DNA of 64,000 nucleotides from Nannocystis bainbridge (GTDB taxonomy: Bacteria; Myxococcota_A; Polyangia; Nannocystales; Nannocystaceae): the NCBI RefSeq assembly GCF_028368995.1, contig NZ_JAQNDL010000001.1:3168001-3232000 (forward strand). Reading direction: 5' to 3'. A program made the position numbers and the translations under genes. The notes under the pieces are model-generated. The model was not told the origin of the DNA and searched no databases. It was given only the letters and a program-made list of their open reading frames with translations. Positions 61 through 59,360 of this stretch are shown here, piece by piece; the stretch's first letter is position 1; every line of letters begins with the position of its first letter.

Positions 61-88
61 CGCCTCCCGGGACATGTCCTTTCAGACA
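61..88. repeat. Tandem pair of the TGTCC-N4-GGACA palindrome family
   Basis: GGACA at 70-74 is followed by TGTCC-TTTC-AGACA at 75-88, upstream of fadD. Confidence 0.7.
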
Positions 89-253
89 GGAATGACGGTC
101 CCATGAACGTCGTTTGCGCGGCACGGGCGGGCGGGTGCGCGAGCGAGGCGTCCGCGCGTCCACGCGCCGCAGCCCGGGAAACTCCGCTGGGGAGGCGCCT
201 GGACAGGCGTGCGAGCCTTCGCTACAAGAGGTGCCTGTTGGAGCGCCTCGATC

Positions 254-2089
254 ATGGCTGACACACACCTCGCTCAGATGTTTTTCGACCGCGCCCGCTC
301 CGAGGGCCAGAGCCCGGGCTATCGCGTCCGCCAGGGCAACGCCTACGTCGACGTGCCCTTCGGCGAGGCCGCCGATCGCGTCGAGGCGATCGCCGCCGGC
401 GTGCTGAAGGGCGGCCACGCGCCCGCGATCGGCACCTGCGTCACGATCATGGCCAACACCCGACTCGAGTGGATCCTCGCCGACTGGGCCCTGCTGTCGC
501 TCGGCTACCGCACCGTCCCGATCTACGTCAGCCTGCTGCCGCCCGAGATCGGCTACATCCACGCCGACACCAAGGCCGAGCTGCTGGTGGTCGAGAACAA
601 GGAGATGCTCGACAAGGTGCGCGCGGCTCAGCGCGGCTTCACCTTCTTCGAGATCGAGTACCCGGCCGACGCGATCAAGCTCAAGCGCTTCATCGTCCTC
701 GACCCGACCGGCATCGCCCCCGGGGACGACTGGGAGAGCCTGGCCGACGTCGAGGCCCGCGGCCGCGCCGCGCTGGCCGAGACGAAGGGCGAGCGCGACA
801 AGCGGATGCAGGCGATCCAGCGCTCCGACGTCGCCACGTACACGTACACCTCCGGCACCACCGGCCCCCCGAAGGGCGTCATCCAGACCCACGGGAACAT
901 GCTGAGCATGCTCGAGAACGTCGAGGAGGTCGGCATGTTCAGCGACAAGGCGCGGGTCGGCGGCGCCTTCCTGTTCTTGCCGCTGGCGCACTCGTTCGGC
1001 CGCCTCGTCGAGTTCGGCGGCGCCTTCTTCCGCTGCAAGATCGTCCTGTCGTCGATCGCCACCGTCGCCGAGGACCTCGGCCTCGCGCGCCCCGGCTTCC
1101 TGCCCGCGGCCCCGCGGGTGTACGAGCGCGTCTACGGCAAGATCATGACCACGGTCGCCTCGAGCCCGGCGCTGCGGCAGAAGATCTTCCACTGGGCGCT
1201 CGGCGTCGGCAAGGCGACGATCCCCTACCGCCAGAAGAACAAGTCGCTGCCGCTCGCGCTCGGCATCAAGTACGGCCTGGCCGACCGCCTGGTGTTCTCG
1301 AAGCTCAAGGCCAAGCTCGGCATGGACCGCATGCACGTGCTGCTGTCCGGCTCGGCGCCGCTGCCGAAGGAGGTCGGCGAGTTCTTCATCGCGCTCGGCC
1401 TCAACGTGTGCGAGGCCTACGGCCTGACCGAGACCTGCCCCGGCCTCACCACCAACCGCCCCAACAACTGGAAGATCGGCACCGTCGGTCCGGCCATCAA
1501 GGGCGTTTCCCTGCGCCTCGCCGAGGACGGCGAGATCCTCGCCAAGGGCCCCAACGTCGTCGGCGGCTACCTCAACCGGCCCGACGCCACCGCCGAGGCG
1601 TGGGACAGCGAAGGCTGGTTCCACACCGGCGACATCGGCGAGTTCGACGAGGACATGCACCTGCGGATCACCGACCGCAAGAAGGACCTCATCAAGACCA
1701 GCGGCGGCAAGTACGTCGCCCCGCAGAAGATCGAGGCCCTGCTCAAGACCAAGCCGATCCTCAGCGAGGCGGTCGTCATCGGCGACGGTCGCAAGTACTG
1801 CGTCGTCCTCGTCACCGTCGACAAGGAGAAGCTCGCCGCCTGGTCGCAGCGCACCGGTAACCCCGCCGACATCAACAGCGGCGCCGTGCAGAAGGAAGTC
1901 CAGGGCTACCTCGACGAGGTCAACCAGAGCCTCGCCTCGTTCGAGTCGATCAAGTACTTCAAGATCGCCCCCGAGGAGTTCACGGTCGACAATGGCATGC
2001 TGACGGCCTCGTTCAAGGTCAAGCGCAAGGAGGTCTCCAAGCGCTACAAGGCCCTGATCGACTCGATGTTCTCGGCCGGCAAGGAGTGA
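254..2089 (+). CDS. fadD: Long-chain fatty acid-CoA ligase (AMP-dependent synthetase)
   Basis: YTSGTTGPPKG AMP-binding loop, AYGLTET, WFHTGDIG, ITDRKKDLI, and C-terminal LTASFKVKR. Start moved to ATG 254 (MADTHL). Confidence 0.93.
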   Translation: MADTHLAQMFFDRARSEGQSPGYRVRQGNAYVDVPFGEAADRVEAIAAGVLKGGHAPAIGTCVTIMANTRLEWILADWALLSLGYRTVPIYVSLLPPEIGYIHADTKAELLVVENKEMLDKVRAAQRGFTFFEIEYPADAIKLKRFIVLDPTGIAPGDDWESLADVEARGRAALAETKGERDKRMQAIQRSDVATYTYTSGTTGPPKGVIQTHGNMLSMLENVEEVGMFSDKARVGGAFLFLPLAHSFGRLVEFGGAFFRCKIVLSSIATVAEDLGLARPGFLPAAPRVYERVYGKIMTTVASSPALRQKIFHWALGVGKATIPYRQKNKSLPLALGIKYGLADRLVFSKLKAKLGMDRMHVLLSGSAPLPKEVGEFFIALGLNVCEAYGLTETCPGLTTNRPNNWKIGTVGPAIKGVSLRLAEDGEILAKGPNVVGGYLNRPDATAEAWDSEGWFHTGDIGEFDEDMHLRITDRKKDLIKTSGGKYVAPQKIEALLKTKPILSEAVVIGDGRKYCVVLVTVDKEKLAAWSQRTGNPADINSGAVQKEVQGYLDEVNQSLASFESIKYFKIAPEEFTVDNGMLTASFKVKRKEVSKRYKALIDSMFSAGKE

Positions 2090-2101: not shown

Positions 2102-2162
2102 GCCATGTCCGATCGGACATGGCACAAGAGACATGGCGCCGAGGACATGCCCTCGGCGCCAT
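2102..2162. repeat. 14-bp-phased array (4 units) of the TGTCC-N4-GGACA family between convergent genes
   Basis: Units: TGTCC-GATC-GGACA 2106, TGGCA-CAAG-AGACA 2120, TGGCG-CCGA-GGACA 2134, TGCCC-TCGG-CGCCA 2148. CAT falls at 2104/2118/2132/2146/2160. Also a perfect 22-bp palindrome at 2102-2123 and a 12-bp inverted repeat at 2133-2162. Confidence 0.85.
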
Positions 2163-6000: not shown

Positions 6001-7311
6001 TCAGAGCGGCGGCAACCCGACCAGCGCCGCGTGGGTGTCGGCCCACATCTTCAGGCCCACGAGGTCGAGGGAGTAAACGCTCGTCACGCTCCACGGCCAC
6101 GCGCCCGCGTAGCCGTTGGCGCGCAGGACATCGAGCCGCGCGGCCGCCTGGTCCGAGACGATGAACTCGCCCACCACCATCGGCCGGTCGAGCCCGAGGT
6201 CGGCGTATGCCTGCACCGTCGGCGAGAACTGCACCGTCCCGAGCTCCGGATCGCCGTTCCACTGCTGCCCGTCCATCCACGGGTAGTAGTGCGTCTGGTA
6301 GAAGTCGAGCCCCAGCGGCGGCAGCCCGTGCGAGCTGGCGAACTCGGGCGTCCACACGCGATACCACTTCAACGACGCCGACCCCAGCGTCACGTAGGCT
6401 GAAGTGTGGGTGTGCACGGCTTCGCTGACGGTGGCCGCGAACGCGTAGAAGTCTGCCAGCGGGACGGCGTCGGCGCCGCCGTCGGGCGAGGCGGCGGGCA
6501 GGTCGGCGATCGACCACTCTGGCTCGTTCATGATCTCCCACGCGAGGATCGCCGGCTCGTCGGCGAACTCCTGCAAGAGCGGCACGATCGCCGCCTCGAC
6601 CAGCGCCGCCCGCTTGGCCGGATCTTCGAGCGTGTCGCTGCGCCCGCCCGTCTGCACCCCGTTGTTGTGCTGGGCCCAGAACATCCAGTGGAAATCGAGC
6701 AGCACCGGCACGAGGTAGATGCCCCGCGCCCGTGCGATCGCCACGGCCTCATGCATGTCCTCGAGGACATGTTCTCCGAGACCGGTCGGATTGCCGTCGC
6801 CCGAGAACGAGATCCCCGCGCGACCGTCGGTGAACACGAACCATCGCGCCACCCGCAGCCCATGACTCTGCAGCGCGTCGAAGTGCGCCCCGACCTCGGC
6901 CTGCTTGGTGTGCACCCCGTAGGTGCCCCAATTGTTGCTGCCGAAATCGCCGCCGTAGTTCAGCCACGGATAGTTGGCGCCCAGCAGGAAGTAATCACCG
7001 TCACCGACCGGGATCGTGCTCCCGGGTGGCACGTCCTGCCCGCCGGTCGTCCCGCTGCTCGAGCTCGTCGAGGTGTCACTGGTCGTGCTCGTCGTGCTCG
7101 TCGTGCTGGTGCTCGTGCTCGAGCTCGTCTCCACGCCGGTCGTCGGCGCCGTCGTACCCCACGTCGTCGTCGTGTCCCACGTCGTGCCCCACGTCGTCGT
7201 CGTCGTCATCGACGAGGTCGTGTCGAAGTCGGCGGCGAACGTGGTCTCGAACCCGTCGTCCAGCTGACACGCGAGCGCGAGCGACCCGAGGACCAGAACC
7301 AGTCGATGCAT
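6001..7311 (-). CDS. Glycoside hydrolase clan A (GH5-like cellulase/mannanase) lipoprotein with Thr/Ser-rich linker
   Basis: Signal MHRLVLVLGSLALAC, WEIMNEPE acid/base motif, QTHYY, VVGEF nucleophile, GAWPWS. Start reset to ATG 7311. Confidence 0.85.
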   Translation of the reverse strand: MHRLVLVLGSLALACQLDDGFETTFAADFDTTSSMTTTTTWGTTWDTTTTWGTTAPTTGVETSSSTSTSTTSTTSTTSDTSTSSSSGTTGGQDVPPGSTIPVGDGDYFLLGANYPWLNYGGDFGSNNWGTYGVHTKQAEVGAHFDALQSHGLRVARWFVFTDGRAGISFSGDGNPTGLGEHVLEDMHEAVAIARARGIYLVPVLLDFHWMFWAQHNNGVQTGGRSDTLEDPAKRAALVEAAIVPLLQEFADEPAILAWEIMNEPEWSIADLPAASPDGGADAVPLADFYAFAATVSEAVHTHTSAYVTLGSASLKWYRVWTPEFASSHGLPPLGLDFYQTHYYPWMDGQQWNGDPELGTVQFSPTVQAYADLGLDRPMVVGEFIVSDQAAARLDVLRANGYAGAWPWSVTSVYSLDLVGLKMWADTHAALVGLPPL

Positions 7312-10048: not shown

Positions 10049-10555
10049 TCAGGCCTCGAACTCGTACTCGGTGAAGCCGAGCTCGAAGCTGCACGCGCGC
10101 GCCGGTGCGACCGCCGTCGGCGGGCTCGCGGCGTGCTGCACCACATAAGGACCGGCCAGGCGCACCACCGCTTCGGGCGTGTGGGCGAGACCTGTCCCGA
10201 AGGTCAGACGCCTGCCGCCGCCGGGCGCGTCCGCTTGCGCGAGCAGCTGCAGCGCGGTCGCCTCCTCCGGGCCCTGCGCATACACGTCGCAGCTCGCCGC
10301 GTCGGCGGCCGTCTGTTCGACCTCGACCTCGACGCGCATCGACCAGCCGCGCCGCGTCGCCCGCCGCTGCAGATCAGCGAGCAGGTCGGCTGCCGCAAAC
10401 TCGTGCACGTCGTCGTCATCGAGCGCATCGGGCTGCGCGACCGGCAGCGCCACGCTGTAGACCGGGCAGAACAGCGCGCCCCCTAGCGGATCGCCGACGC
10501 CGAACACGCAGCGCAGCGCGAACAGCCCGGGGGCCGTGCATGGCTCTTCGGACAT
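10049..10555 (-). CDS. Hypothetical protein
   Basis: Open frame between rpsU and the EEP gene in the same orientation, with a plausible non-shadow composition. The start ATG lies inside the palindrome junction at 10553-10555. Confidence 0.55.
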   Translation of the reverse strand: MSEEPCTAPGLFALRCVFGVGDPLGGALFCPVYSVALPVAQPDALDDDDVHEFAAADLLADLQRRATRRGWSMRVEVEVEQTAADAASCDVYAQGPEEATALQLLAQADAPGGGRRLTFGTGLAHTPEAVVRLAGPYVVQHAASPPTAVAPARACSFELGFTEYEFEA

Positions 10556-10626
10556 GTCCCTCGGGACACCGTCATCGCGCCGGGCGGCGACCAGACGCAG
10601 TCGCATGGGACCTGTCCGAAAGGACT
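10541..10626. repeat. Cluster of TGTCC-N4-GGACA units
   Basis: TGGCT-CTTC-GGACA 10541, perfect TGTCC-CTCG-GGACA 10555, TGTCC-GAAA-GGACT 10613. Confidence 0.8.
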
Positions 10627-13674: not shown

Positions 13675-13766
13675 AGCAATTCATGCGCGTTTGTGCCCCG
13701 CCCGGCCTACTGGCCCCCGGACTGGTGGCGGCCGGCAGCAGGGGGGGTATAAAGCAGCGTCGCCCC

Positions 13767-14483
13767 ATGCTCACGGCCAGGTCCACACCGCTGCCCGAAG
13801 TTTTGGCAGCGCTGCCGATCTTCCCGCTGCCGAACGTCGTCCTGCTGCCGGGTATGGTGCTGCCGCTCAACGTGTTCGAGCCGCGCTACTTGCAGCTCGT
13901 CGACCACGCGCTGAGTGAAGGCCAGCACATCGGCGTGCCGCTGCTGCGGCCGCGCGGCGAACGGACAGCCGAGCGCAAGCCGGCGATCGAGCCGGTGTTC
14001 GGGCTCGGCAAGCTGGTATTCCACCTGCGCCTGCCCGACGGTCGGCGGTTGATCCGCCTCGAAGGCCTCGGCCGCGTGCAGCTCGTGCGCGAGCTGTCGG
14101 GGGCCAACCTCTTCCGCGAGGCCGAGGTCGAGGCGCTGCCCGAGCCGCCCGTGTTCGACAAGCCGTCGCTGCTGCTGCTGCGCTCGCAGATCGAGCGGCT
14201 GGCCCGGCTGTCGGGCGACGACGGCGACGCGCTCGGCTCGCTGCTCGCGCTGCCCGACCCGCGGATCCTCCTCTACGCGCTGACCGCCTTCCTCCCCAGC
14301 CTCGAGCTGCTCGGCGGCCACGACGTCGCGTCCGCCGCCGCCCGCCGCGAGCTCGTCGACCTCCAGCAGCAGAGCCTGGCCGCCGACACCCCCGAGGACC
14401 GCCTCGGCTTCCTCGTCGACCGCACCGCGTTCCTCCTGCGCCGCCTCGGCGACGGCCCCGAGGCCTCGATCCTGCTCAACTAG
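13767..14483 (+). CDS. LON peptidase substrate-binding (N-terminal) domain protein
   Basis: LPIFPLPNVVLLPGMVLPLNVFEPRY...LPDGR.LI.LEGLGR. No ATPase or protease domain. Confidence 0.85.
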   Translation: MLTARSTPLPEVLAALPIFPLPNVVLLPGMVLPLNVFEPRYLQLVDHALSEGQHIGVPLLRPRGERTAERKPAIEPVFGLGKLVFHLRLPDGRRLIRLEGLGRVQLVRELSGANLFREAEVEALPEPPVFDKPSLLLLRSQIERLARLSGDDGDALGSLLALPDPRILLYALTAFLPSLELLGGHDVASAAARRELVDLQQQSLAADTPEDRLGFLVDRTAFLLRRLGDGPEASILLN

Positions 14484-14484: not shown

Positions 14485-14574
14485 GGACATGTCCGCCGCG
14501 ACATGCTCGATGGAGCATGTCCGCCGCGACATGCCCGCCGAAGCATGTTCTGTAGGACATCTCGCAGGACATGC
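14485..14574. repeat. 14-bp-phased tandem array (5-6 units) of the TGTCC-N4-GGACA family between convergent genes
   Basis: CAT at 14488/14502/14516/14530/14544/14558. Units include TGTCC-GCCG-CGACA twice and TGTTC-TGTA-GGACA. Degenerate copies continue to about 14695. Confidence 0.85.
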
Positions 14575-20595: not shown

Positions 20596-21267
20596 ATGCA
20601 CCTGCGCGTCCTGCTCTTCGCGGGCCTCCGCGAGCGCCTCCGCCGCGACAGCGTCGACCTCGAGCTGCCCGCCGGGGCGCGCGTCCGCGACCTGCTCGCC
20701 GCCCTCGCCCGCGACCAGCCCGACCTCGCGCCCGGCCTCGCGGTCTGCCGCGTCGCCGTCGACCACGAGTTCGTGGCCGCCGACCACCCGCTCGCCGAGG
20801 GCAGCGAGGTCGCCGTCATCCCGCCCGTCAGCGGCGGCCACGACGGACCCGCCGCCTATCAATTGATCAAGGACCGCCCGCTGGCCCTGGCCGACGTCGT
20901 CGCCGCGGTCGCCCACGCCGGCGCCGGCGGCATCGACATCTTCGTCGGCAACGTCCGCGATCGCAGCCGCGGCCACGACATCGCCCGCCTCGAGTACGAG
21001 GCCTACGAGCCGATGGCGCTGCGGGTGATGCGGCAGATCGGCGCCGCGATCGAGGCCGAGACGCCGGGCGTGCGGGTGGCGATCCACCACCGCCTCGGGG
21101 TGCTGCAGATCGGCGACAGCGCCGTGATCGTGGCCGCCTCGGCGCCGCACCGCGCCGAGGCGTTCGCGGCCTGCCGCGCGGCCATCGAGCAGCTCAAGCA
21201 GGACGTGCCGATCTGGAAGCGCGAGGTCGCCACCGACGGCCTCACGTGGGTCGTGCAAGGGCCGTGA
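20596..21267 (+). CDS. moaX: Fused molybdopterin synthase MoaD-MoaE
   Basis: MoaD part LFAGLRE...IPPVSGG, followed by MoaE part FVGNVRD, LEYEAYEPMA, HRLG, PHRAEAF, KQDVPIWKRE. Confidence 0.92.
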   Translation: MHLRVLLFAGLRERLRRDSVDLELPAGARVRDLLAALARDQPDLAPGLAVCRVAVDHEFVAADHPLAEGSEVAVIPPVSGGHDGPAAYQLIKDRPLALADVVAAVAHAGAGGIDIFVGNVRDRSRGHDIARLEYEAYEPMALRVMRQIGAAIEAETPGVRVAIHHRLGVLQIGDSAVIVAASAPHRAEAFAACRAAIEQLKQDVPIWKREVATDGLTWVVQGP

Positions 21268-21309
21268 TGCACCTTCGGACATGTCCTGATAGACATGTCC
21301 GAATAGACA
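21268..21309. repeat. Three head-to-tail 14-bp units of the TGTCC-N4-GGACA family
   Basis: TGCAC-CTTC-GGACA, TGTCC-TGAT-AGACA, TGTCC-GAAT-AGACA, starting immediately after the moaX stop. Confidence 0.85.
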
Positions 21310-21509
21310 TATCGTTCGCCCTCGCCTGCGCCCCGTAGACTTTCGCCTGGGGTCTCGACGCGATGGCCGGCCCGCGGCGACCCTCCTCCGCGACAGTGAC
21401 GCTTCGACCCGCGAGCTTCCGGCCCTCTCGCAGCGGCGGCCGGCGCGGCGGACTCGCGGGCGCGCGGGCGACCCCGACGCCCGGCCGCTGGGGTACTCTC
21501 GCCCGGCCC

Positions 21510-24506
21510 ATGGCCCGCTACGCCCCGCTCTTCCTCCTCTTCTTCCTGTCAGGCATCAGCGGCCTCATCTACGAGTCGATCTGGTCGCGCTACATCAAGC
21601 AGTTCGTCGGCAGCGCCGCCACCGCCCAGGTCCTCGTGCTCAGCCTGTTCATGGGCGGCATGGCGCTCGGCTCGCTGCTGGCCTCGCGCCGGCTCGCGGG
21701 CGTGCGCCGACCGGTGCGCGCGTACGGCCTGATCGAGGGCGGCATCGGCCTGTACGCGCTGGCGTTCCCGTGGCTCAGCGAGCTGGCGATGCGCGTGTGT
21801 TACGACCACGTGTTCCCCGGGCTCGGCGGCGGCTTCGCGGTCGAGGCGGTCAAGTGGAGCGTCGCCGGCCTGCTGATCCTCCCGCCGTGCGTGCTGCTGG
21901 GCATGACCTTCCCGCTGATGAGCGCCGGCATCCTCCGCCGCGACCCCGAGCGCTCCGGCGAGATCCTCAGCTTCCTCTACTTCACCAACAGCATCGGCGC
22001 GGCGCTCGGCGCCTTGCTGTCGGGCTTCGTCCTGGTCGCCAACTTCGGCCTGCCGGGCACCCTCGCCTGCGCCGCCGGCCTCAACATCGTCATCGCCGTG
22101 ATCGCCCTGGCTCACCGCCGCGAGCACGCGCCGATCGTCGAGGACACCGCCGCCTCGGCCGGCACCGACAACCTGGTCAAGCTGCTGCTGCTCGTGGCCT
22201 TCGGGACCGGGCTCTCCTCGTTCATGTACGAGATCGGGTGGATCCGCCTGCTGTCGATGATCATCGGCAGCGCCACCCACTCGTTCGAGGTCATGCTTTC
22301 GGCGTTCGTGTTCGGCCTGGCGATCGGCGGCCTGTGGGTGCGCAAGCGGATGGACCGGTTCAAGCGGCCGGAGCTGGTGCTCGGCATCGTCCAGCTGATC
22401 ATGGGCGTGGCCGCGATCGCGACCTTGCCGGCCTACCAGTGGGCGGTCGAGGCGATCGGCTGGCTGCTGGTCGACTCGCAGGGCAACCGCACCGAGGCGC
22501 TGTGGCAGCAGTTCAACGTCCTCCGCTACGCGCTGTGCCTGCTCATCATGTTCCCGGCGACCTTCTGCGCCGGCATGACCCTGCCGCTCATCACCCACGT
22601 GCTGCTGCGCCGCGGCCAGTCCGAGGGCGTCATCGGCCGCGTCTACGGCTTCAACACCTTCGGCGCGATCGCCGGGGCCGTGCTCGCCGGGCTCGTGCTC
22701 ATGCCGCTCATCGGCCTCCAGCGCGTCATCGTGCTCGGCGCCGCCGTCGACGTCGCCCTCGGCCTCGTGCTCGTGTTCGGCGACGCCCGCCGGGCCAAGC
22801 ACCCGGCCAAGATCCGCAGCTTCGGCCGGATCGCCGCCGGCAGCTCGCTGCTCACCCTCGCGTTCGGCCTGTTCGTCGTCAAGATCGACCCGATGGTCCT
22901 GTCGGCCACCGTGTTCCGCAACGGCCGCACGCGCCTGCCCGAGGGCTTCGAGCTGCTGTCCTACGTCGACGGCCGCACCGCCTCGGTGTCGGTCATCCGC
23001 CTCACCGACGCCCGCGAGTATCGCGTCATCTACACCAACGGCAAGCCCGACGCCTCGGTGGTGCTGAACCGCTACCCCGCCGACCGCGACCCCGAGCTCG
23101 GGCCCGACTTCGCCGGCGACGAGCCCAACCAGGTGCTGGTCGGCCTGCTGCCGCTGATGGCCCGGCCCCAGTCCACCGACGTCGCGCTGATCGGCTTCGG
23201 CTCCGGGGTGACGGCGCACGTGCTGCTCGGGTCGCCGACGCTGCAGCGGCTCGACACCATCGAGATCGAGCGCGAGATGGTGACGGGCTCGCGCAACTTC
23301 TACCCGGCCAACGCGCGCGCCTACGACGACCCGCGCAATCACTTCTGGTTCGACGATGCCAAGGCCTACTTCGCCGGGGCCGCGCGGCAGTTCGACATCA
23401 TCGTGTCCGAGCCGACCAACCCGTGGGTCAGCGGCGTCTCGAGCCTGTTCACCGTCGAGTTCTACCGCGAGGCCAAGCGCTACCTGAAGCCGGGCGGGAT
23501 CCTGGCCCAGTGGCTGCAGGGCTACGAGCTCAGCGACGAGCTGCTGCTGACCGTGCTCGCCGCCCTCGACCAGGAGTTCAGCGACTACCAGATCCTCCGC
23601 GTCGGCGCGAGCGACTGGGTCATCCTCTCGGTCGCCGACGGCGAGCTCGGGCGGCTCAGCGAGCAGCCGTTCACGTGGGCCGAGATGAAGCCCGAGCTGC
23701 AGCTGCTCGGCGTGCACGACATCGGCCAGGTCGACAACCTCGTGGTCGCCAACCGCCGCATGCTGCGCCCGTTCCTCGCCGGTCGCCCGGCCAACTCCGA
23801 CGCCATGCCGCTGCTCGACACCGGCGCCGAGAAAGCCCGCTTCCTCAAGGAGTCGGCCGGCTTCCTCCACCGCATCCGCTGGACCCCCGCGCCGCTGCTC
23901 GAGGTCCTCGGCGGCATCGAGCGCCGGCCCTATCCGGCCGGGGGCATCGGCGACCGTCGCCACCCGCACGTGTTCGAGGAGGCCGAGACCGCGGTCGCGC
24001 TGCTGCGCTTCTACGCCGACCCGACCCAGCGCTTCGCCGAGGACATCAGCCTCACCACCATGAACCAGTGGATCGACGAGCAGCGCCGGATCACCGCCGG
24101 CATCGACGACTGGGACGGCTGGATCGAGGCCACCTACGGCGTCTACATCAACCTCGTGCCGCACCTGCGCCTCGGTGACGTCGCCTGGTGGAAGGACGTC
24201 CTCGCCACCGCCCGCGACCGCAAGGCCCCCGCCGAGGTGCTCGCCTTCCTCGACGCCCTCGACGCCTTGCAGGCGCGCGACCCCGCCCGCCTGCGGGCCC
24301 GCCTCGACGAGCTCGACGGCGGCAAGAGCAAGCTGCTCACCACGGGCATGCGGGCGATCTCTGGCATGGTCGCCCGGGAGCTGGATGGAGCCGATCCCGC
24401 AGCCCGTCGCGCCTGGGCCGAGTCCAACATGGATGGGGTCGCCGACGCCGAGCTCCGCGGTGAGCGCCTGGCCTACGAGGCCCTGCGCGCCTACGCAGGC
24501 CGCTGA
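21510..24506 (+). CDS. Fused MFS-like membrane domain / spermidine synthase-like methyltransferase
   Basis: About 13 TM helices with duplicated SGISGLIYE/GLSSFMYEIGW and GMTFPL/GMTLPL halves. SAM-fold ALIGFGSGVT, IEIE, DDAK, DIIVSEPTNPW. Confidence 0.87.
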   Translation: MARYAPLFLLFFLSGISGLIYESIWSRYIKQFVGSAATAQVLVLSLFMGGMALGSLLASRRLAGVRRPVRAYGLIEGGIGLYALAFPWLSELAMRVCYDHVFPGLGGGFAVEAVKWSVAGLLILPPCVLLGMTFPLMSAGILRRDPERSGEILSFLYFTNSIGAALGALLSGFVLVANFGLPGTLACAAGLNIVIAVIALAHRREHAPIVEDTAASAGTDNLVKLLLLVAFGTGLSSFMYEIGWIRLLSMIIGSATHSFEVMLSAFVFGLAIGGLWVRKRMDRFKRPELVLGIVQLIMGVAAIATLPAYQWAVEAIGWLLVDSQGNRTEALWQQFNVLRYALCLLIMFPATFCAGMTLPLITHVLLRRGQSEGVIGRVYGFNTFGAIAGAVLAGLVLMPLIGLQRVIVLGAAVDVALGLVLVFGDARRAKHPAKIRSFGRIAAGSSLLTLAFGLFVVKIDPMVLSATVFRNGRTRLPEGFELLSYVDGRTASVSVIRLTDAREYRVIYTNGKPDASVVLNRYPADRDPELGPDFAGDEPNQVLVGLLPLMARPQSTDVALIGFGSGVTAHVLLGSPTLQRLDTIEIEREMVTGSRNFYPANARAYDDPRNHFWFDDAKAYFAGAARQFDIIVSEPTNPWVSGVSSLFTVEFYREAKRYLKPGGILAQWLQGYELSDELLLTVLAALDQEFSDYQILRVGASDWVILSVADGELGRLSEQPFTWAEMKPELQLLGVHDIGQVDNLVVANRRMLRPFLAGRPANSDAMPLLDTGAEKARFLKESAGFLHRIRWTPAPLLEVLGGIERRPYPAGGIGDRRHPHVFEEAETAVALLRFYADPTQRFAEDISLTTMNQWIDEQRRITAGIDDWDGWIEATYGVYINLVPHLRLGDVAWWKDVLATARDRKAPAEVLAFLDALDALQARDPARLRARLDELDGGKSKLLTTGMRAISGMVARELDGADPAARRAWAESNMDGVADAELRGERLAYEALRAYAGR

Positions 24507-24541
24507 GCGGTCACCTGTCTCCAGGGACATCTCACTTCGCC

Positions 24542-32535: not shown

Positions 32536-32645
32536 AGCCTGTCCTTCGGGACAGGCTTTTCTCGCGTCGAGCTTCTTGGAAGCCTGTCCTTCGGGACATG
32601 CTGCTTCTTGCGTGGCCCGAAATGATGGCCATGTCCCTTCGGACA
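32536..32645. repeat. Three perfect TGTCC-N4-GGACA sites spaced 45 and 47 bp
   Basis: AGCCTGTCCTTCGGGACA is identical at 32536 and 32581. TGTCC-CTTC-GGACA at 32632. Confidence 0.88.
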
Positions 32646-32687
32646 TCTCACGCTCGTCGCAGACGGACGCGGGAGCGAGCGAGCCGC

Positions 32688-33256: not shown

Positions 33257-34945
33257 TCAGGCTCGGGCGCCCAGATGCGGCCGCGCCTGCGCGTAGCACC
33301 ACGCCAGCACCAGCAACAGCGGCACCAGGCTGAGCGGGCCTGGCAGCCCGAGCATTCGCCCGAGGTTCGCCGGCCCGGTGTAGCCGGTGTCCGTCGCCCA
33401 GATCCGCGGCCACGCGTGGCCCCACAGCGGGTCGCCGAACTGCGGCGCCTCCGGGGCCGACGCTGCCAGCAGCAGCGTCAATGCACCCGACAGCAGCGCC
33501 AGGCCCAGCACTGCCCGCGGCACCGCGCGGATCGCCGGCGCCAGCGCCAGCGCCAGGAACGGCAGCATCGGCACGCAGTGGCGCGGGCCGATCGCCGCCC
33601 CGCCGTCCCACATGTAATAGCCGGCGTTGAGCGCCAGGTAGAAGCCGATCACCCCCAGGCACACCGCAGCGACCTGCCTCACCGGCCATGTCCCCGAGGA
33701 CCTGCTCCATGGGCCAGGTGGCCAGCCGCGCAGCTCGCACGCCAGCCCCCACGGCGCCAGCAGCAGCACCGGCGCCAGGTAGAACAGCCCGCGGAACGCC
33801 CCGAACAGCAGCTCCAGCAGCACCCCGGGGTCCGGCGCGTGGATGCCGTAGTTGACGCGCATGCCCTCGGCGAACTCGGCCAGGTAGACGAAATCGTAGC
33901 CGGTCTTGAGCGGGCCGCCGAACGCCACCGAGTGGTAGATCGCCAGGGCGATCGCCGCCGGCGCCCCGCCGAGCGCCGCCACCACGGCGAAGCGGGTCCC
34001 GCGGCGCAGCCAGGCGAACAGCCACAGCAGCGCGACCGGGACCGCCGCCGGGTACTCGCACAGCACCGCCAGCCCGAGGCACATGCCCGTCCCGAAGGCC
34101 ATGGCTGTTCGACCATGTCCCAAGAGGATGCCGGCGAACCCGAGCAGCAGCAGGTCGGCGCACAGCTGGTGGCCGTAGAGCGCCGAGCCGTAGATCAGCG
34201 CCGGGGTCGCCAGCGCGTAGGTCGCCGCCAGCAGCAGCGCCCCGGCGCGGTCGCCGAGGCGGCGCAGCGCCAGCAGGTACAGCGCCAGCGCGCCGAGCAC
34301 CGCGAACACCCCGACCGAGCCCACGCGGCTGACGTACAGCGCGGTCCGGTAGGCCTGGTTGTAGAACAGCCGGTCGCCGGGACGGCGGGCCGCCGGGTCG
34401 CGGTTGGGGTCGCGCGGGTCGAGCGGGACCAGACGGACCTCGGGCGCGTCGGCGCCGACCAGCCGCCCGGCCCCGTAGTAGAGCGCGTAGGCGGGCGCCG
34501 CCAGCAGCGACGTGCCGGGCGCCTTGTCGCTGTAGAAGTGGCCGTCCCGCTGGCTCTTGTCGCCGGTGGTCGCGTGGTAGTCGTCGATGATCGTCGTGCC
34601 CTGCTCGACCAGCGCGCGCGTCAGGGCCAGGCGCGAGTTCTGGTTCCACGCGGGCGGGCCCGAGAAGTACGAGGTCGCGGCGAACACCGCCACGGCGAGC
34701 GGCACCAGCACCGGCGCCTCCGCTCGCACGCTGGCCCGCAGGCTGTCGCCGCGCTCATTGCCTGCGTCGCCGGAGGCTGGCGCTTCGACGTCCGGGCCGC
34801 GCCCTTCGGAACATGTCGCTTCGGACATGTCCTCTCGAACATCTCCGACACTCCACCCCGGGCCTCCCGCCCCTGCCCCTTCGGACAGGCCCTCCGAGCC
34901 TTGCCCGGGGCGGCCCGGGTCGCCGGAGCCTGGCCCTGCGGACAT
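33257..34945 (-). CDS. Polytopic membrane protein, GT-C/ArnT-like glycosyltransferase
   Basis: First-loop WNQNSR...GDKS...FYSDKAPG, about 11 TM helices, LCEY, FGGPLKTGY, RGLF, WDGGAAIGPRH. Start uncertain (34945, 34828 or about 34729). Confidence 0.7.
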   Translation of the reverse strand: MSAGPGSGDPGRPGQGSEGLSEGAGAGGPGWSVGDVREDMSEATCSEGRGPDVEAPASGDAGNERGDSLRASVRAEAPVLVPLAVAVFAATSYFSGPPAWNQNSRLALTRALVEQGTTIIDDYHATTGDKSQRDGHFYSDKAPGTSLLAAPAYALYYGAGRLVGADAPEVRLVPLDPRDPNRDPAARRPGDRLFYNQAYRTALYVSRVGSVGVFAVLGALALYLLALRRLGDRAGALLLAATYALATPALIYGSALYGHQLCADLLLLGFAGILLGHGRTAMAFGTGMCLGLAVLCEYPAAVPVALLWLFAWLRRGTRFAVVAALGGAPAAIALAIYHSVAFGGPLKTGYDFVYLAEFAEGMRVNYGIHAPDPGVLLELLFGAFRGLFYLAPVLLLAPWGLACELRGWPPGPWSRSSGTWPVRQVAAVCLGVIGFYLALNAGYYMWDGGAAIGPRHCVPMLPFLALALAPAIRAVPRAVLGLALLSGALTLLLAASAPEAPQFGDPLWGHAWPRIWATDTGYTGPANLGRMLGLPGPLSLVPLLLVLAWCYAQARPHLGARA

Positions 34946-41003: not shown

Positions 41004-41420
41004 ATGCCCAAGACCACACCCCTGCAAAACGTCAAGAAGCTCTTCGGATCCAAGGACCAGCTCGTCGCCCGCGTGGCCGAGCTCCTGCCCAGCGCCTTCT
41101 CGGGCGAGTCGGCCGAGGACTTCAAGAAGCGCCTGAAGTACGTCGCCAACAGCAAGCTGCTCCGCCTCATCGAGATCGGTGAGAAGGCCAAGAAGCTCGG
41201 CGGCGTCCAGGCCCTCGTCGACAAGATCGCCGAGCTCAAGGGCCAGGCCAAGGACAAGGACTTCAAGGCCGCGCTCGCCAAGTTCAGCGTGCCCAGCCTC
41301 GTCGACCTCCACCAGAGCCTCACCCGCAAGGGCAAGCAGGCCGAGAAGACCGAGAAGCCGGTCGAGGCCAAGGCCCCCAAGAAGGCCGAGGCGAAGAAGA
41401 CCGACAAGAAGAAGGCCTGA
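41004..41420 (+). CDS. Small Lys-rich basic protein with internal duplication and H1-like tail
   Basis: 138 aa, GAGG SD, strong codon bias, tail KTEKPVEAKAPKKAEAKKTDKKKA. Confidence 0.8.
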   Translation: MPKTTPLQNVKKLFGSKDQLVARVAELLPSAFSGESAEDFKKRLKYVANSKLLRLIEIGEKAKKLGGVQALVDKIAELKGQAKDKDFKAALAKFSVPSLVDLHQSLTRKGKQAEKTEKPVEAKAPKKAEAKKTDKKKA

Positions 41421-41425: not shown

Positions 41426-41527
41426 TGTCCTTCAGGACAGCCCTCGGGAGGGCCGCGGCACACGCCGCGGCCCTTCGCGCTTTCGGGATCCCAACCCGCC
41501 GGAGGTCACCGCATGTCCCTCGGGACA
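41426..41527. repeat. Two perfect TGTCC-N4-GGACA sites flanking a GC hairpin
   Basis: TGTCC-TTCA-GGACA 41426, hairpin 41449-41474, TGTCC-CTCG-GGACA 41514. Confidence 0.85.
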
Positions 41528-46120: not shown

Positions 46121-46273
46121 GGCCTGCAACCATACCACGCGCGATCTGCGAGATCCCGCGGCGAAGCAGCCACGGGCGCGCGCGCGTCGACGCGGCGGCA
46201 CCCGAGCCCGCGTGCGCCCCCTCATGAGATGGTTGCCGCCACCGCGCCGCCGTGTTGTCATCCTTCCTCCAGG

Positions 46274-49297
<3,024 letters not shown>

Positions 49298-49299: not shown

Positions 49300-49631
49300 T
49301 GCTCTTCGGGACATGTCCGTGAGGGCATGTCCCGAGCGACAGCTCGACTGAGGCTCTGCCCCACCGATCTACAGTGCTTCGGGACATGACTCCGAGGTTA
49401 TGTCCGCGCGAGCATGTCCGCGCCACAGATTTTTCGTCGGCGATGCCGGTCCGCGACGGCGCTCGCCGGGCATCGTGATGACCTGGCCCGAGGGACAGCT
49501 TTCCCTCATCCGGCCAGCGGGCGGGCCGGGTGGCCAGCCGGCGGGACACCGCGTGACCGCGGCGCCGCGTCGGCGCCGGCTTTTTCGCTGGCACGCGGCT
49601 TGAAGTCCTTCGGGACATGTCCCAAGGGAGT
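49300..49631. repeat. Dense cluster of 14-bp-phased TGTCC-N4-GGACA-family units
   Basis: Tandem units at 49300/49314/49328 and 49373/49387/49401/49415, a single unit at 49484, and a pair at 49604/49618. Confidence 0.85.
49589..49603 (+). promoter_or_regulatory. Putative sigma54 -24/-12 promoter of radC
   Basis: TGGCAC-GCGGC-TTGA matches TGGCAC-N5-TTGC except at the last base. Confidence 0.5.
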
Positions 49632-51171: not shown

Positions 51172-51195
51172 GGCCGCCGAGCCTGCCTCGGCGCG

Positions 51196-51293
51196 TGTCC
51201 TTCGGGACATGCTTCGAGAGAACCGGCCGACGTCGCTCGGCGATGGATGTCTCTCGACACATCTCCTTCCTGCCGAACCTGTCCCTCAGGACA
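51196..51293. repeat. TGTCC-N4-GGACA cluster between convergent genes
   Basis: Perfect sites at 51196 and 51280, near-match TGTCT-CTCG-ACACA at 51248. Confidence 0.85.
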
Positions 51294-51301
51294 TCCTCTC
51301 T

Positions 51302-53396: not shown

Positions 53397-53424
53397 TGTC
53401 CCTCAAGACATGTTCTTCAGGCCA
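53397..53424. repeat. Tandem pair of TGTCC-N4-GGACA-family units filling the intergenic gap
   Basis: TGTCC-CTCA-AGACA followed by TGTTC-TTCA-GGCCA. Confidence 0.7.
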
Positions 53425-55460: not shown

Positions 55461-55612
55461 ATCACCTGTCCCCCGGGACATCCGCCTCGCCGACGCCCGG
55501 GCGCGCGCCCGCGAACCTCGATTCGAAATCACCTGTCCCCCAGGACAGCCTCGCCCCGCCGGCGCCCTCCGCGGACCCACCAAAATCACCTGTCCTCGGG
55601 GACAGCCTCGCC
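55461..55612. repeat. Three about 30-bp direct repeats, each with a perfect TGTCC-N4-GGACA core
   Basis: (AA)ATCACCTGTCCnnnnGGACA(GCCTCGCC) at 55461, 55526 and 55583. Cores at 55467, 55534 and 55591. Confidence 0.88.
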
Positions 55613-55627: not shown

Positions 55628-56278
55628 TCAAGAGCGGGCCTTCGGCAGCTGCTTGCGCAGGAACTCGACCGCGACCTGGCAGAACGGGCGGAACTCCTGC
55701 CCGTCGCGGCTCGACCAGCGATCGATCTCCCGCTCGAGCGCCGCGCGCGACCACGTCTTGGTGTCGCTGTATTTCTTGCGCAGGCGGGCCACCAGGCCCT
55801 CGATCACCCGGCGCCGCAATTGCCGGAGGTGCGGCGCGTTGAGGCCGAGCACCTGGTCGAGGTCGCGCTCGGCCTCGGCGTCGGCGCCGAACACCCGGCC
55901 CTCGACGAAGCCGTAGCGCACGCGGTGCTCGACCCCCGCGATCGGGTCGAGCACCAGCGGGCTCGCGCCCTTGCGCACGTCGCAGTGGCGGATGTCGCGC
56001 TGCTCGTGCGTCGGGTTGTCCTGTCCTCCGGGACAGGCGGCCAGCAGGTTGCGGTGCGTCAGCTGCTGCCCGCGGTGCTCGTGCTGCGGCCGCAGGTGCT
56101 CGATGCGCAGCGACTCGACCGCGATGCGGTTCATGCAGTAGCAGCAGATCGCGCCCTGCTCGCGCACCAGCGCCCGCCGCAGCTCCTGCTTCCACGGGCC
56201 CGGATCTTCGAAGCTGCCGCCGGCCTGGCGGTGCTCCGTCAGCGCCGCCGGCTCGCGGCCCTTGCGGATGTTCTTCAT
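55628..56278 (-). CDS. ptuB: HNH endonuclease, PtuB/TIGR02646-like
   Basis: MKNIRKGREP, LVREQGAICCYC, IEHLRPQ, NLLAAC, HCDVRKG, VLGLN. ATGA-coupled to the ATPase. Confidence 0.85.
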   Translation of the reverse strand: MKNIRKGREPAALTEHRQAGGSFEDPGPWKQELRRALVREQGAICCYCMNRIAVESLRIEHLRPQHEHRGQQLTHRNLLAACPGGQDNPTHEQRDIRHCDVRKGASPLVLDPIAGVEHRVRYGFVEGRVFGADAEAERDLDQVLGLNAPHLRQLRRRVIEGLVARLRKKYSDTKTWSRAALEREIDRWSSRDGQEFRPFCQVAVEFLRKQLPKARS

Positions 56279-57630: not shown

Positions 57631-57803
57631 CGATCGCCGAACCGGCCGCAGTGTAGGCCCCGGCGCGCGGCGCTCGCAAGTGCGCGCGTTCGTCAGCGCC
57701 GCGCGCTGAATCATCGCTACGCGCGGCCTCCGGCCGGTCTCGCCGCGCCGACGCCTCGGGCCGGGCCCCGCGACGGCACCCGCCCGCGCTCACGCGCCGC
57801 GCG

Positions 57804-59360
57804 TCAGTGCTGCGCGCGGCGGCGGAACGCGGCCACCAGCGCCTCGGGCTCGACCCGGCCGGGGCCGACGCCCGGCTTCGGCCGGACCATCCCGAGCGAG
57901 GCCATGTCGTGGACGTAGGCCGGGCGGCGCATCCCGACCAGCACGCACGTGACCGGCAGCGCCAGCAGCGTGAGCACGGCCCGGCGCGACAGCGGCAGCC
58001 CGCGCCACGCGTCGGGGGTGGCGGCGGCCAGGCGGTCGCCGATCGCGTCGGTGAGGGCCTGCGCGCGGGCGCGGAAGTCGTCCTCGATGGCGTCGAGCGC
58101 GGCCAGCATCTGCTGCCCGTACTCGTCCCAGAACGCGCGGAACTCGGGCTGCAGCGCCGGGTCGAGGTCGCTCGTCAGGCTGGCCTCGATCTGCGCGCAG
58201 TGGGCCGCGATCACGTTGTTGCGCAGGTGCAGCCAGTGCCCGAGGTCGCGGATCTGGCCGAGCCCGGACTGCAGCTCGCTGCCCCAGCGCAGCAGGTCGC
58301 GAATGCCGTCGCCGTACTCGGCGGCCAGGCGCGCCCCCAGGCCCTCGGCCCACTCGCCCTCGAGCCGCTGCAGCGCCCGCAGGATCGGCAGCGGATCTCT
58401 CGCCTGGTCTTTGGGACCTGGCGCATCGGCCAGGCGGATCATGTGCGGCCCCTCGCCCTCGTCGACGAACGCGTTGAGCGGGCGGTTGACGAGCAGCGCC
58501 AGGCCCTCGCGGCGGGCCAGCGCCACCACCGAGGGCGCGCCGTCGGGCTGGGCCTCGGTCAGGGCGCCGAGCTCGTAGAGGTTGAGCGGCAGCTCGGCGA
58601 CGGCGAAGTGGTGCAGCGCGCCGCCGACCTCGCGCGCGAGCGCCAGCGCGCGGCCGAGCGAGACGTACTGGCCGCTGTCCGCCGGCTCGACGAAGCTGTT
58701 GGCCGACACGCCGTACCAGGCGATCTCGCCGCGCTGCACGGCCTGCTCGAGGAACCCGAACGCCTCGCGCAGGCGCCTCTCGAACTCCTCGCGATCCTCG
58801 GCCGTGACCTCGTCGGCGCGGTTCTCGCAGTCGATGAAGAAGTACTCAGGGTTGTGCAGCAGGAACACGTCGATCGTCTGCAGCCCGAGGCGTTGGCGGC
58901 TGAGCGCCAGCTGGTCGGCGAGGAACTCGGGGTGCAGGCAGTGCCAGCAGCTGTCCTGGTAGCGGACCAGGTCGGGGTACGGCGGCTGGCGCTCGTGGGC
59001 GAGCTCGAGCGCGGTGCCCTGCAGGTACCCGGCCTTGGTGACGACGACGATGTCCTCGCGGCCGGCGACGCGGCCCTCGAACAGCTCGCGCAGGACCTGG
59101 CCGACGAGGATCTCGCTGCCGCCGTCGCCGTAGTTGGCGCTGGTGTCGACCAGGTTGACGCCGGCGCGCACCGCCTCCTCGAAGGCCTGACGGTGCAGCC
59201 CCGACTCGACGTGCACGCGGTAGGCGCCGAAACCGACCGGCGCGACGTGGAGGCCGGTGCGCCCGAGCTGGCGCGCGTCCATGCCGAATCGACGCGCCCG
59301 CTCGGCGCTCGCCGCCGGCGCCGCGCGTCCGGGCCACAGAGGTCGCTCTTGCTCGCTCAT
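57804..59360 (-). CDS. Aldo/keto reductase family protein (long form)
   Basis: LGRTGL.V..VGFG, VDTSANYGDGGSE, VVTKAG, LLHNPE, YGVS.N, VLVGMRRPAYV. Confidence 0.88.
   Translation of the reverse strand: MSEQERPLWPGRAAPAASAERARRFGMDARQLGRTGLHVAPVGFGAYRVHVESGLHRQAFEEAVRAGVNLVDTSANYGDGGSEILVGQVLRELFEGRVAGREDIVVVTKAGYLQGTALELAHERQPPYPDLVRYQDSCWHCLHPEFLADQLALSRQRLGLQTIDVFLLHNPEYFFIDCENRADEVTAEDREEFERRLREAFGFLEQAVQRGEIAWYGVSANSFVEPADSGQYVSLGRALALAREVGGALHHFAVAELPLNLYELGALTEAQPDGAPSVVALARREGLALLVNRPLNAFVDEGEGPHMIRLADAPGPKDQARDPLPILRALQRLEGEWAEGLGARLAAEYGDGIRDLLRWGSELQSGLGQIRDLGHWLHLRNNVIAAHCAQIEASLTSDLDPALQPEFRAFWDEYGQQMLAALDAIEDDFRARAQALTDAIGDRLAAATPDAWRGLPLSRRAVLTLLALPVTCVLVGMRRPAYVHDMASLGMVRPKPGVGPGRVEPEALVAAFRRRAQH

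Follow-up and report, generated by a model that had tools for sequence, protein, structure and literature searches.

The genome of Nannocystis bainbridge (RefSeq assembly GCF_028368995.1; 11,048,555 bases in five contigs, here C1–C5) carries the 14-bp palindrome TGTCC-N4-GGACA at thousands of places. The motif was noticed in a 64,000-base stretch of contig NZ_JAQNDL010000001.1 (C1:3168001-3232000, referred to below as the window), and it is a real, very strong and lineage-specific genomic signal that belongs among the highly iterated bacterial palindromes. The explanation that we favor, with a probability of roughly 0.55, is that the motif is a highly iterated recognition site on duplex DNA for a dimeric protein, for which a candidate can be named. 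In the mechanism that we propose, a symmetric dimer would read two independent half-sites whose centers lie 9 bp apart. The candidate reader is a 189-amino-acid protein with an N-terminal domain that is predicted to dimerize and a LuxR/GerE-type helix-turn-helix (HTH). Sites would accumulate where binding is harmless, i.e., directly past stop codons, between convergent genes and in disordered protein linkers, and would be kept out of promoters. As to the role of the site, our leading guess is a sequence-specific coat of the nucleoid type or a barrier that works in both directions where transcription units end, and not classical promoter control. Highly iterated short words, such as repetitive extragenic palindromes (REPs), highly iterated palindrome 1 (HIP1) and uptake sequences, remain poorly understood compared with most other features of bacterial genomes. 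The present motif is unusually tractable, with dimer-type statistics, a boundary at three genera, a strict geometry, a placement at gene ends and one clonable candidate.

Abundance and geometry of the palindrome

A direct scan of the window detected 16 perfect copies of TGTCC-N4-GGACA, all at the starts reported in the initial annotation, which was made from the sequence without database searches; in 100 dinucleotide shuffles of the window, the mean number of perfect copies was 0.02 and the maximum was 1. The 24 imperfect copies listed in that annotation were also largely sound, as 16 had one mismatch and seven had two (starts 3856, 4923, 5845, 15139, 25298, 45136, and 53000), but the one at 58405 was not within two mismatches, and 12 one-mismatch sites had been overlooked. 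In total, the window contained 44 sites at ≤ 1 mismatch (1.6 in shuffles) and 88 sites at ≤ 2 mismatches (25.5 in shuffles). Tandem Repeats Finder independently reported arrays with a 14-bp period at 14486-14548, 21278-21310, and 34803-34846. The G+C content of about 72% used for the first estimate of chance occurrence was near the true value (70–73% in the window and 71.1–72.0% in each contig).

Across the genome, we counted 1,987 perfect copies and 4,258 one-mismatch copies, about 6,000 in all. The spacing of the two arms was strict: 1,987 perfect copies were found at N4, compared with 0–16 at each of the other spacers from 0 to 12 (16 at N3 and 5 at N5), and the 15 one-mismatch variants of the left arm together gave about 110 copies at N3 and about 120 at N5. 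When 8-mers were ranked with an order-3 model, words of the motif were the most over-represented, and ACATGTCC occurred 3,947 times against 378 expected; a maximum-order Markov model was uninformative because the sub-words are enriched themselves. An N4 partner at ≤ 1 mismatch accompanied 2,150 of these 3,947 copies.

The extended site reads R-C-[A/C]-TGTCC-N4-GGACA-[T/G]-G-Y, and the information is confined to the 5 + 5 bases and about three flanking positions. Position −1 is C in 43% and A in 52% of the sites, and the (−1, +14) classes are AT (652 sites), CG (413), CT (371), and AG (319). Sites of the second class (−1 = C, CCTGTCC..GGACAGG) occur singly, and the full CTGTCC..GGACAG form is present in 413 of the 1,987 sites. 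At least one flanking CATG is found in 1,099 sites, and none in the other 888. The claim that the spacer varies freely and need not be self-complementary was upheld: the spacer has a Y-Y-R-R bias, its self-complementarity does not go beyond chance, and the commonest spacer accounts for 5% of the copies.

The initial annotation had suggested a chromosome-organizing site and had proposed plotting its density along the replication axis. An organizer limited to the origin (ori) or the terminus (ter) does not fit the distribution, since each of the five contigs carries 15–23 sites per 100 kb, with nothing unusual around either GC-skew switch. Site density correlated with G+C content (Spearman rho = 0.48). 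The stretches that were nearly empty of sites had a lower G+C content and were poorly called as coding, which suggests that they are acquired DNA. One such stretch of 200 kb, C1:1100000-1300000, contains about 5 copies where about 36 are expected, has a G+C content of 0.68–0.70, and is a candidate acquired island; similar troughs are located at C2:1.85 Mb and C1:0.55 Mb. A separate 11-kb segment, C1:2811257-2822232, contains 13 sites at ≤ 1 mismatch and no gene according to the caller described in the next section.

Placement around genes and formation of arrays

Genes were predicted with a crude caller based on the G+C content of third codon positions (GC3), which yielded 7,853 genes and 82% coding sequence, so the division into coding and intergenic sites is approximate. 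By this division, 1,172 sites were intergenic, 795 were wholly within genes, and 20 were partly so. The number of sites per kb was 1.37 in convergent intergenic regions, 0.55–0.60 in tandem regions, 0.20 in divergent regions, and 0.087 in coding sequences (CDSs). A site at ≤ 1 mismatch was present in 50% of the 1,426 convergent regions (about 65% of those of 100–400 bp), compared with 16% of the divergent regions. For the 1,057 intergenic sites adjoining the 3′ end of a gene, the median distance was 50 nt, and 320 of them were within 20 nt of the stop codon; for the sites adjoining a 5′ end, the median distance was 210 nt. Similarly, 158 sites in tandem regions fell in the decile nearest the stop codon and 18 in the last decile.

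The starts of the sites form two series of period 14 that are locked to the stop codon, one at −3, 11, 25, and 39 and the other at 2, 16, and 30; the TGA therefore often belongs to the first unit. Distances of < 100 bp between neighboring sites made up 18% of the total, against 1.8% under a Poisson distribution, with peaks at 14, 28, 42, and 56. Arrays of two to eight abutting units contain 425 of the 1,987 sites. These arrays are built of abutting 14-bp units, GGACATGTCC-N4, and adjacent units differ in their spacers. Successive intergenic CATG tetramers lay 14 bp apart in 2,972 cases, compared with about 40 for neighboring distances, and the decamer GGACATGTCC (956 copies) is mostly a junction between units, 760 of the 956 having an N4 partner (≤ 1 mismatch) on at least one side.

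Reading as duplex DNA or as a folded hairpin

A palindrome with this placement might also act as a REP-like or terminator-like stem-loop in RNA or single-stranded DNA at 3′ ends, where it would serve termination, mRNA protection or a hairpin-recognizing enzyme, and where its symmetry would serve both converging transcripts. Such a role would account for the preference for 3′ ends and convergent regions; two adjacent decamers are able to form a 10-bp stem with a 4-nt loop, in a subset of sites the stem is longer and complementarity is weakly in excess, and site 32540 of the window, which is kept in five genomes, resembles a stem followed by a T-rich run. Nevertheless, we regard the hairpin as quite an unlikely general explanation, as five results on spacing, degeneracy, covariation, strand symmetry and folding point to duplex DNA that is read as half-sites. 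The opinion of the initial annotation that a dimer reading two half-sites fits better than a folded RNA thus agrees with the rigid N4, the independence of the half-sites, the position-specific degeneracy and the strand symmetry.

First, the spacer is fixed at four bases, whereas hairpin loops tolerate 3–5 nt. Second, one-mismatch forms that break the stem outnumber the perfect form, at about 18-fold over the spacer controls, and the degeneracy depends on the position. G2 is almost invariant (1–25 copies per variant), T3 is loose, transversions included (TGACC, 230/178; TGGCC, 335/451; TGCCC, 381/314), and the variants seen most often are C-to-T forms such as TGTCT. Sites changed in both arms were about as frequent as the product of the single changes predicts (TGTCT..AGACA, 127 versus about 94 expected). 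Third, the Watson–Crick frequency at −1/+14 through −10/+23 was near the expectation from column composition, and the 3,109 intergenic CATG-N10-CATG pairs showed no covariation within the decamers or across the spacer, apart from a small excess. Fourth, when tandem intergenic variants were oriented by transcription, 313 G·U-compatible forms were found versus 265 of the C·A mirror forms, i.e., there was no G·U asymmetry. Fifth, segments with a site folded at −16.0 kcal/mol versus −15.4 kcal/mol for their neighbors, a gain of only 0.6 kcal/mol. At least four T or A in the adjacent 8 nt were present at 12–25% of the sites, so there is no T-run rule, and generic strong hairpins were about as common in convergent regions without a site (65%) as in those with one (57%). 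A search of sequencing runs for RNA evidence gave small shares only (≤ 0.18) in metagenome contigs and no run of the organism itself. The absence of a T-run rule and the small folding gain also led us to reject a canonical Rho-independent terminator. Furthermore, about 800 copies lie inside genes, no Rfam family reached the threshold in the window, and the Y1 transposase that accompanies REPs (REP-associated tyrosine transposase, RAYT; PF01797) had 0 matches in this genome (90% complete), in a search that matched 6 of 14 known genomes as a control.

Copies inside genes

The enrichment within genes was also evident against a codon-aware background of the kind against which the initial annotation had proposed to measure it. 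When synonymous codons were shuffled within each gene, six shuffles gave 18–33 genic copies, compared with 796 in the genome, an excess of about 33-fold. A strong local GC3 signal surrounds 71% of the 795 genic copies. The copies are spread along genes, and their main frames are xxT-GTC-Cnn-nnG-GAC-Axx (447) and xTG-TCC-nnn-nGG-ACA (283). They lie mainly in disordered linkers of proteins, and the densest clusters are P/A/E/S-rich repetitive linkers that read VPEDS, VPADS, and VLRDR. The genic excess together with these clusters therefore indicates that a force at the DNA level shapes tolerant protein segments, and this force writes V-P-x-D-S peptides into hundreds of proteins. Large proteins with long P/A/E/S-rich linkers and recurring V-P-x-D-S or V-L-R-D-R are encoded at C2:2066054-2070358, C5:658301-661411, and C3:659930-663346.

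Taxonomic range

The initial annotation considered the motif specific to its lineage. This holds, although the range is not one genus but three, Nannocystis and two others of its family. The 14-mer occurred 114–2,090 times in all 10 genus-mates and 67–295 times in seven genomes of the two sister genera (87 and 161 in the first two), with counts of 2–4 for the controls in the five further sister-genus genomes. Elsewhere, the counts were 3–5 in six further genera of the family and 0–7 in twelve other families. The 18-mer CATGTCC-N4-GGACATG was present in all 12 genomes of the three genera and in none of the 29 genomes examined from 14 other genera, and its control was 0 throughout. A search for the 24-mer GGACATGTCC-N4-GGACATGTCC in one genome each of 185,579 species gave 78 loci, of which 75 were in records of Nannocystis, Nannocystaceae or Myxococcales metagenome-assembled genomes (MAGs), and three were single matches elsewhere.

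The initial annotation also suggested a modification-linked palindrome, which we considered in the form of a HIP1-type element in which the site itself or the CATG at the array junctions would be methylated and the abundance would arise from methylation-dependent binding or repair. The motif is genome-wide in coding and non-coding DNA, as HIP1 is; 1,099 of the 1,987 sites have a flanking CATG, the commonest variants are C-to-T forms, and this genome has 12 matches to N6/N4 methylases, the joint highest number among 41 genomes of the family. However, all or almost all of these 41 genomes encode N6/N4 and D12 methylases, which thus carry no phyletic signal; at the level of the family, none of them tracks the motif. 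Since, in addition, 888 sites have no flanking CATG and position 3 is degenerate in all directions, which is not explained by deamination, we consider this origin very unlikely. The form of it that involves C5 methylation did not survive our searches: neither a C5 methylase (PF00145) nor Vsr was found in this genome, and a link to C5 methylation and very short patch repair was rejected on that ground.

A candidate reader protein

The genome contains about 10 GerE/LuxR-HTH genes. One of them, C3:1036254-1036823 on the minus strand, encodes a 189-amino-acid protein with a GerE-type HTH and is distributed with the motif; a gene with such a distribution was what the initial annotation had proposed to look for. 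Orthologs at E ≤ 2.4e-38 were detected in 12 of 12 motif-bearing genomes, with two paralogs in one genus, whereas no match in the 29 motif-free genomes was better than 1.3e-14. Two GerE proteins taken as controls showed no such agreement with the motif: an FHA-GerE protein occurs across many genera, and for a GerE-TPR protein a single ortholog was detected. In the scan of 185,579 species, 28 full-length relatives of the candidate were detected at E ≤ 6e-39, in addition to one fragment with the HTH only; all of them are in Nannocystis, Nannocystaceae, Myxococcales or Polyangia records, and they include both of the non-Nannocystis MAGs that the motif scan had picked up. When 24 of these sequences were aligned, residues 125–177 of the HTH proved essentially invariant (recognition helix SFSTVRTYVRQIYRR), while the overall identity falls to 46–60%. 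An invariant HTH with a diverging N-terminal domain is what would be expected of a protein tied to very many sites. Judging by these comparisons, the candidate may be the reader of the motif, although we hold this identification to be doubtful.

Pfam recognizes only the GerE domain in the candidate, and public databases label its family generically as "LuxR C-terminal-related" or "CsgD family." The closest solved HTH is that of NarL, whose C-terminal domain has been solved in complex with DNA (1JE8, 1ZG1, 1ZG5), with an E value of 5e-6 and a root-mean-square deviation of about 1 Å. NarL-type 7-2-7 sites consist of inverted half-sites with a center spacing of 9 bp, as in the geometry proposed here; NarL differs in that it reads another half-site sequence, is a response regulator and has tens of sites. 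The structural model of the candidate has a mean predicted local distance difference test score (pLDDT) of 70.8 and a small alpha/beta N-terminal domain, and its whole-chain matches, at low template-modeling (TM) scores, are the sensor-HTH regulators EL222, TraR, VqmA, and CviR. Prediction of a homodimer scored 0.60, compared with 0.25 for the best of three controls. The mark that it passed is reached by 20 of 30 proteins whose solved structures are same-chain pairs and by 1 of 23 with single-chain structures, counts that hold roughly here because a self-made alignment was used. The runs agree in at least 40% of the contacts, with a partner pLDDT of at least 61, and place a symmetric interface in the N-terminal domain at residues 36–54 and 94–111. 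The pass may reflect likeness to known structures, as sensor-HTH dimers of this kind have already been solved.

The candidate gene follows an ECF-sigma-like gene (extracytoplasmic function), and just downstream of it on C3 (L154:6140-6165) is a 22-bp perfect palindrome, ACGGAGGGACATGTCCCTCCGT, which is spacerless and based on the decamer. A search for a reader beside motif-rich divergent regions and the densest clusters gave no lead. We rejected PadR, whose operator (ATGT-N8-ACAT) fits half of the sites, because PF03551 was not found in this genome. An open frame at C2:1196402-1198474 contains two tandem GerE-type HTH domains.

Conservation and turnover of the sites

The window has collinear counterparts in four related genomes, with an identity of about 90%. 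We compared orthologous regions totaling 880 kb in one relative (G010), where a site was kept in 41 of the 54 site-bearing intergenic regions and was present in 4 of the 91 site-free regions. Megablast blocks alone contained too few intergenic sites for conservation to be read per base. In 29 globally aligned intergenic regions, the identity was 0.60 for the motif core, 0.63 for the rest and 0.34 for the spacer. The aligned place in G010 was perfect for only 19 of 73 sites; the others had one mismatch (13), two (5), three or more (17), a gap (16), or a partial gap (3). Thus, with 41/54 against 4/91 and a core that is no better conserved than its surroundings, the presence of a site in a region is maintained, while individual copies turn over. 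Some sites, e.g., that at 32540, are by the alignments held under evident constraint while their flanks decay.

High turnover with a presence kept per region (41/54 versus 4/91) is also what molecular drive would produce, i.e., a word favored by a genome-wide bias, such as DNA uptake or biased repair or conversion, that accumulates wherever it is tolerated. Other observations also fit: the motif is lineage-specific and not restricted to either coding or non-coding DNA, its copies are concentrated past the ends of genes and in protein segments under little constraint, it is scarce in atypical stretches of lower G+C (rho 0.48; C1 1.10–1.30 Mb nearly empty), and ComEC and DprA are present in the genome. 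However, known uptake sequences are asymmetric single words, unlike this strictly bipartite palindrome; an uptake bias would not be expected to yield abutting 14-bp arrays or a register set by the stop codon; most bacteria have ComEC and DprA; searches for Vsr found it in 0 of 4 Nannocystis genomes; and some sites are constrained while their flanks decay. We regard drive as unlikely, though still a serious rival.

The copies might, alternatively, be remnants of mobile elements or minisatellites that spread by transposition or slippage and then decayed. Locally repeated units of about 60–67 bp do carry sites (31095-31281 and 55467-55604), there are tandem arrays, and some sites are species-specific indels, with 16 of the 73 sites falling in gaps. 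These features are outweighed by others, and we hold such an origin to be highly improbable: the copies share the 5 + 5 bases only, their spacers and flanks differ, the units of one array have different spacers, the decay is position-specific and not uniform, the motif is scarce in island-like DNA, and no associated transposase was found.

Recognition by a dimeric protein, which we favor, has several results against it. The support for binding is statistical throughout, and the placement on which it partly draws depends on the approximate gene classes mentioned above. The core identity of 0.60 versus 0.63 and the 19 perfect places among 73 show that sites turn over, and genic sites were only modestly better kept (33/48 and 33/43, versus a background of 0.51). 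In favor of the hairpin, hairpin-type pairs were complementary slightly but consistently more often than expected (+0.04 to +0.07), and the complementarity at −1/+14 in intergenic sites was 0.59 versus 0.49. Stems extended by at least 3 bp occur in about 245 of the 1,172 intergenic sites, against roughly half that number by our estimate from column frequencies, and a subset of sites may therefore have a hairpin role. With respect to the candidate, no motif site was found upstream of its gene, either here or in 28 related loci, so that autoregulation is unsupported. The three genera may form one clade, in which case the co-distribution would be a single event common to many clade-specific genes, and it was compared for 3 of the approximately 10 GerE genes and for no other DNA-binding family. 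Moreover, two genera that lack the motif have distant homologs (32–34% identity) in which the recognition helix is largely preserved (VRTY.R.IY), and the protein family alone therefore does not explain the proliferation of the sites. Finally, the site carries about 21 bits where 11.8 are needed, and we know of no regulator in the protein family of the candidate that has thousands of high-information sites.

Comparison with known systems and possible role

The initial annotation knew of no established analog with this sequence. In fact, the core is identical to the lux-type box of CviR/CsuR, CTGNCCNNNNGGNCAG, with the ideal form CTGTCCGATAGGACAG (Stauff and Bassler, quoted in PMC12114271), although that box is confined to a handful of promoter sites in another phylum. 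In both cases, the pattern is TG-N-CC-N4-GG-N-CA with a free position 3, and in the lux case the readers are dimeric GerE-type HTH proteins. On the other hand, lux boxes are few, promoter-proximal and read by an acyl-homoserine-lactone receptor in Betaproteobacteria, whereas the present sites number in the thousands, avoid promoters and form arrays. A dyad of 16–20 bp with (C)TG-N10-CA(G), as in lux boxes, is present here; a position upstream of promoters is not, as the density is lowest in divergent regions and the sites crowd toward the stop codon of the upstream gene. The autoinducer-binding domain PF03472 had one borderline match (23.7 bits), which was not beside a GerE domain; the small N-terminal domain of the candidate is of a different kind.

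REPs and bacterial interspersed mosaic elements are likewise short palindromes that occur past the ends of genes, often in clusters, and that number from hundreds to thousands. However, REPs are extragenic, are kept over 20–40 nt including the loop, have a GTAG/CGTC head and are associated with the Y1 transposase, whereas here only the arms are kept and 40% of the copies are in genes. We rejected a REP/RAYT origin owing to the lack of full-length conservation, this genic share and the failure to find a Y1 transposase. HIP1 of cyanobacteria (GCGATCGC) is a contiguous 8-mer with a methylation site. It is likewise a lineage-specific palindrome of obscure cause that is iterated through coding and non-coding DNA, but the motif described here is bipartite (5-N4-5), forms arrays and prefers 3′ ends. 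The DNA uptake sequences and uptake signal sequences of Neisseriaceae and Pasteurellaceae resemble it in their frequency of about one per 2 kb, their location in tolerant genic segments and downstream of genes, and their scarcity in foreign DNA. The motif shares with them the character of a lineage-specific, over-represented word; it is not a single asymmetric word, as they are, and inverted pairs are a by-product in their case, while here the pair at fixed spacing is the unit.

The Noc NBS, RacA ram, SlmA SBS, MatP matS, and ParB parS sites are dyads that number in the tens each, most of them with an ori or ter pattern. They are alike in being dyads of 12–16 bp that are read by dimers; here, there are about 6,000 sites and no such pattern. 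The stoperators of Cluster A mycobacteriophages are repressor sites located within or after transcribed genes, at which the bound protein blocks the elongating polymerase. They are the nearest precedent for a barrier, from which they differ in numbering two to three dozen, in being asymmetric and oriented, and in residing in a phage genome. In Myxococcus xanthus, the nucleoid protein CdbA gave 569 peaks at specific G+C-rich sites in genes and between them (PMC7156744); CdbA was rejected as the reader, since it recognizes a direct repeat and the present motif is an inverted repeat. Full-text literature searches outside subscription journals and supplements yielded no description of the motif, with Nannocystis palindrome papers judged by the title and the start of the abstract; the matches to motif words among those listed were p53 and primer papers only.

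Taken further, dimer recognition suggests a more specific proposal, which we put forward as speculative and unlikely. A clade-specific, one-component protein of the LuxR type would have become a sequence-specific coat of the chromosome, its dimers sitting side by side on the stop-flush 14-bp arrays at > 6,000 places and separating transcription units, either as barriers in both directions or as boundary marks. The coat would perhaps also take part in nucleoid organization and would possibly be controlled by a ligand sensed by the N-terminal domain. If true, this would be a protein-based, sequence-specified marking of gene ends, of which we know no other bacterial case. A protein that coats gene ends would give a new view of termination, the control of read-through and domain structure in very large, G+C-rich genomes. 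Nannocystis produces natural products, and in the annotation of its genomes the motif is of practical use for marking where genes end and for telling native from acquired DNA.

Sites in the window and neighboring features

The sites and arrays of the window are summarized in Table 1, together with their state in the four related genomes.

Table 1. Copies of TGTCC-N4-GGACA and their arrays in the window (window coordinates).
Position	Feature	Strand	Context	State in related genomes
75..88	Single one-mismatch site	.	Intergenic	
2106..2119	Perfect site		Convergent intergenic region, 16 nt past stop of 254..2089(+)	Otherwise present in G010 alone, with one mismatch
6756..6769	Perfect site		Within CDS 6001..7311(-)	Arms kept, spacer variable in 4 related genomes
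10193..10206	One-mismatch site		Within CDS	
10541..10626	Abutting pair (two-mismatch unit and perfect 10555), then one-mismatch 10613		5′ part of CDS 10049..10606(-)	10555 perfect in 4/4
14486..14559	Array of period 14/28 bp; one-mismatch sites 14490, 14518, 14546		Starts 6 nt past stop of 13725..14483(+)	
21268..21310	Three abutting 14-bp units (2, 1, 1 mismatches)		Begins at stop of 20596..21267(+)	
24516..24529	One-mismatch site		9 nt past stop of 21510..24506(+)	
27129..27142	One-mismatch site		38 nt past stop of 24649..27090(+)	
Starts 29380, 33689, 38358, 43643, 54161	Lone one-mismatch sites		Within CDSs	
31095..31281	Three sites (31095, 31162 perfect; 31268 one mismatch) in a repeated unit of about 67 bp		Upstream of Ser/Thr-kinase-like gene	One-mismatch versions at same places in 4 related genomes
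32540..32645	Three perfect sites		Convergent intergenic region 32467..32687	32540 perfect in 5/5 genomes, with four different spacers and unalignable flanks; 32632 kept in 3/4 relatives
34803..34944	Four one-mismatch sites, two abutting (period 14)			
Starts 35265, 49484, 49604	Lone one-mismatch sites		Intergenic	
41426..41527	Two perfect sites		Convergent intergenic region; first 5 nt past stop of 41004..41420(+), then separate G+C-rich hairpin	41426 perfect or one-mismatch in all five genomes
47596..47623	Two abutting one-mismatch sites		Within CDS 46229..49297(+)	
49300..49341	Three abutting units (2, 1, 1 mismatches)		Begins at stop of 46229..49297(+)	
51196..51293	Two perfect sites		Convergent intergenic region 51172..51301	Positions not kept; relatives have other copies there
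53397..53424	Two abutting units (1, 2 mismatches)		Occupy 21-nt intergenic region	
55467..55604	Three perfect sites in a repeated unit of about 60 bp		Last one 23 nt past stop of 55628..56278(-)	Missing from 4 related genomes
56022..56035	Perfect site		Within CDS 55628..56278(-)	Perfect in 4/4

Several features adjoin these sites. Beside site 2106, a separate G+C-rich hairpin (GGCGCCGAGG..CCTCGGCGCC) at 2134-2170 is kept in all five genomes and is an example of the motif adjoining generic terminator-like hairpins without substituting for them. The region 31010-31450, between gene 29620..30939 and the Ser/Thr-kinase-like gene, contains at least five motif-like units with the spacer CGAA throughout. 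The positions and spacers of these units are kept in the five genomes, unlike most intergenic copies, and here the site may truly serve regulation. Directly past the stop codon of the kinase gene, at 32485-32513, is an A+T-rich near-perfect palindrome, GCAGCCTGTATTTTAAAAATACAGGCTGC, within a segment of about 43 nt that is private to this genome among the five compared. At 41487-41546, three of the four related genomes have a two-gene insertion of 1.3–1.6 kb that is missing here. The inserted frames appear, by eye from the sequence, to be glutathione-transferase-like and TetR-like, and the insertion ends with its own copy of the motif just past its stop codon.

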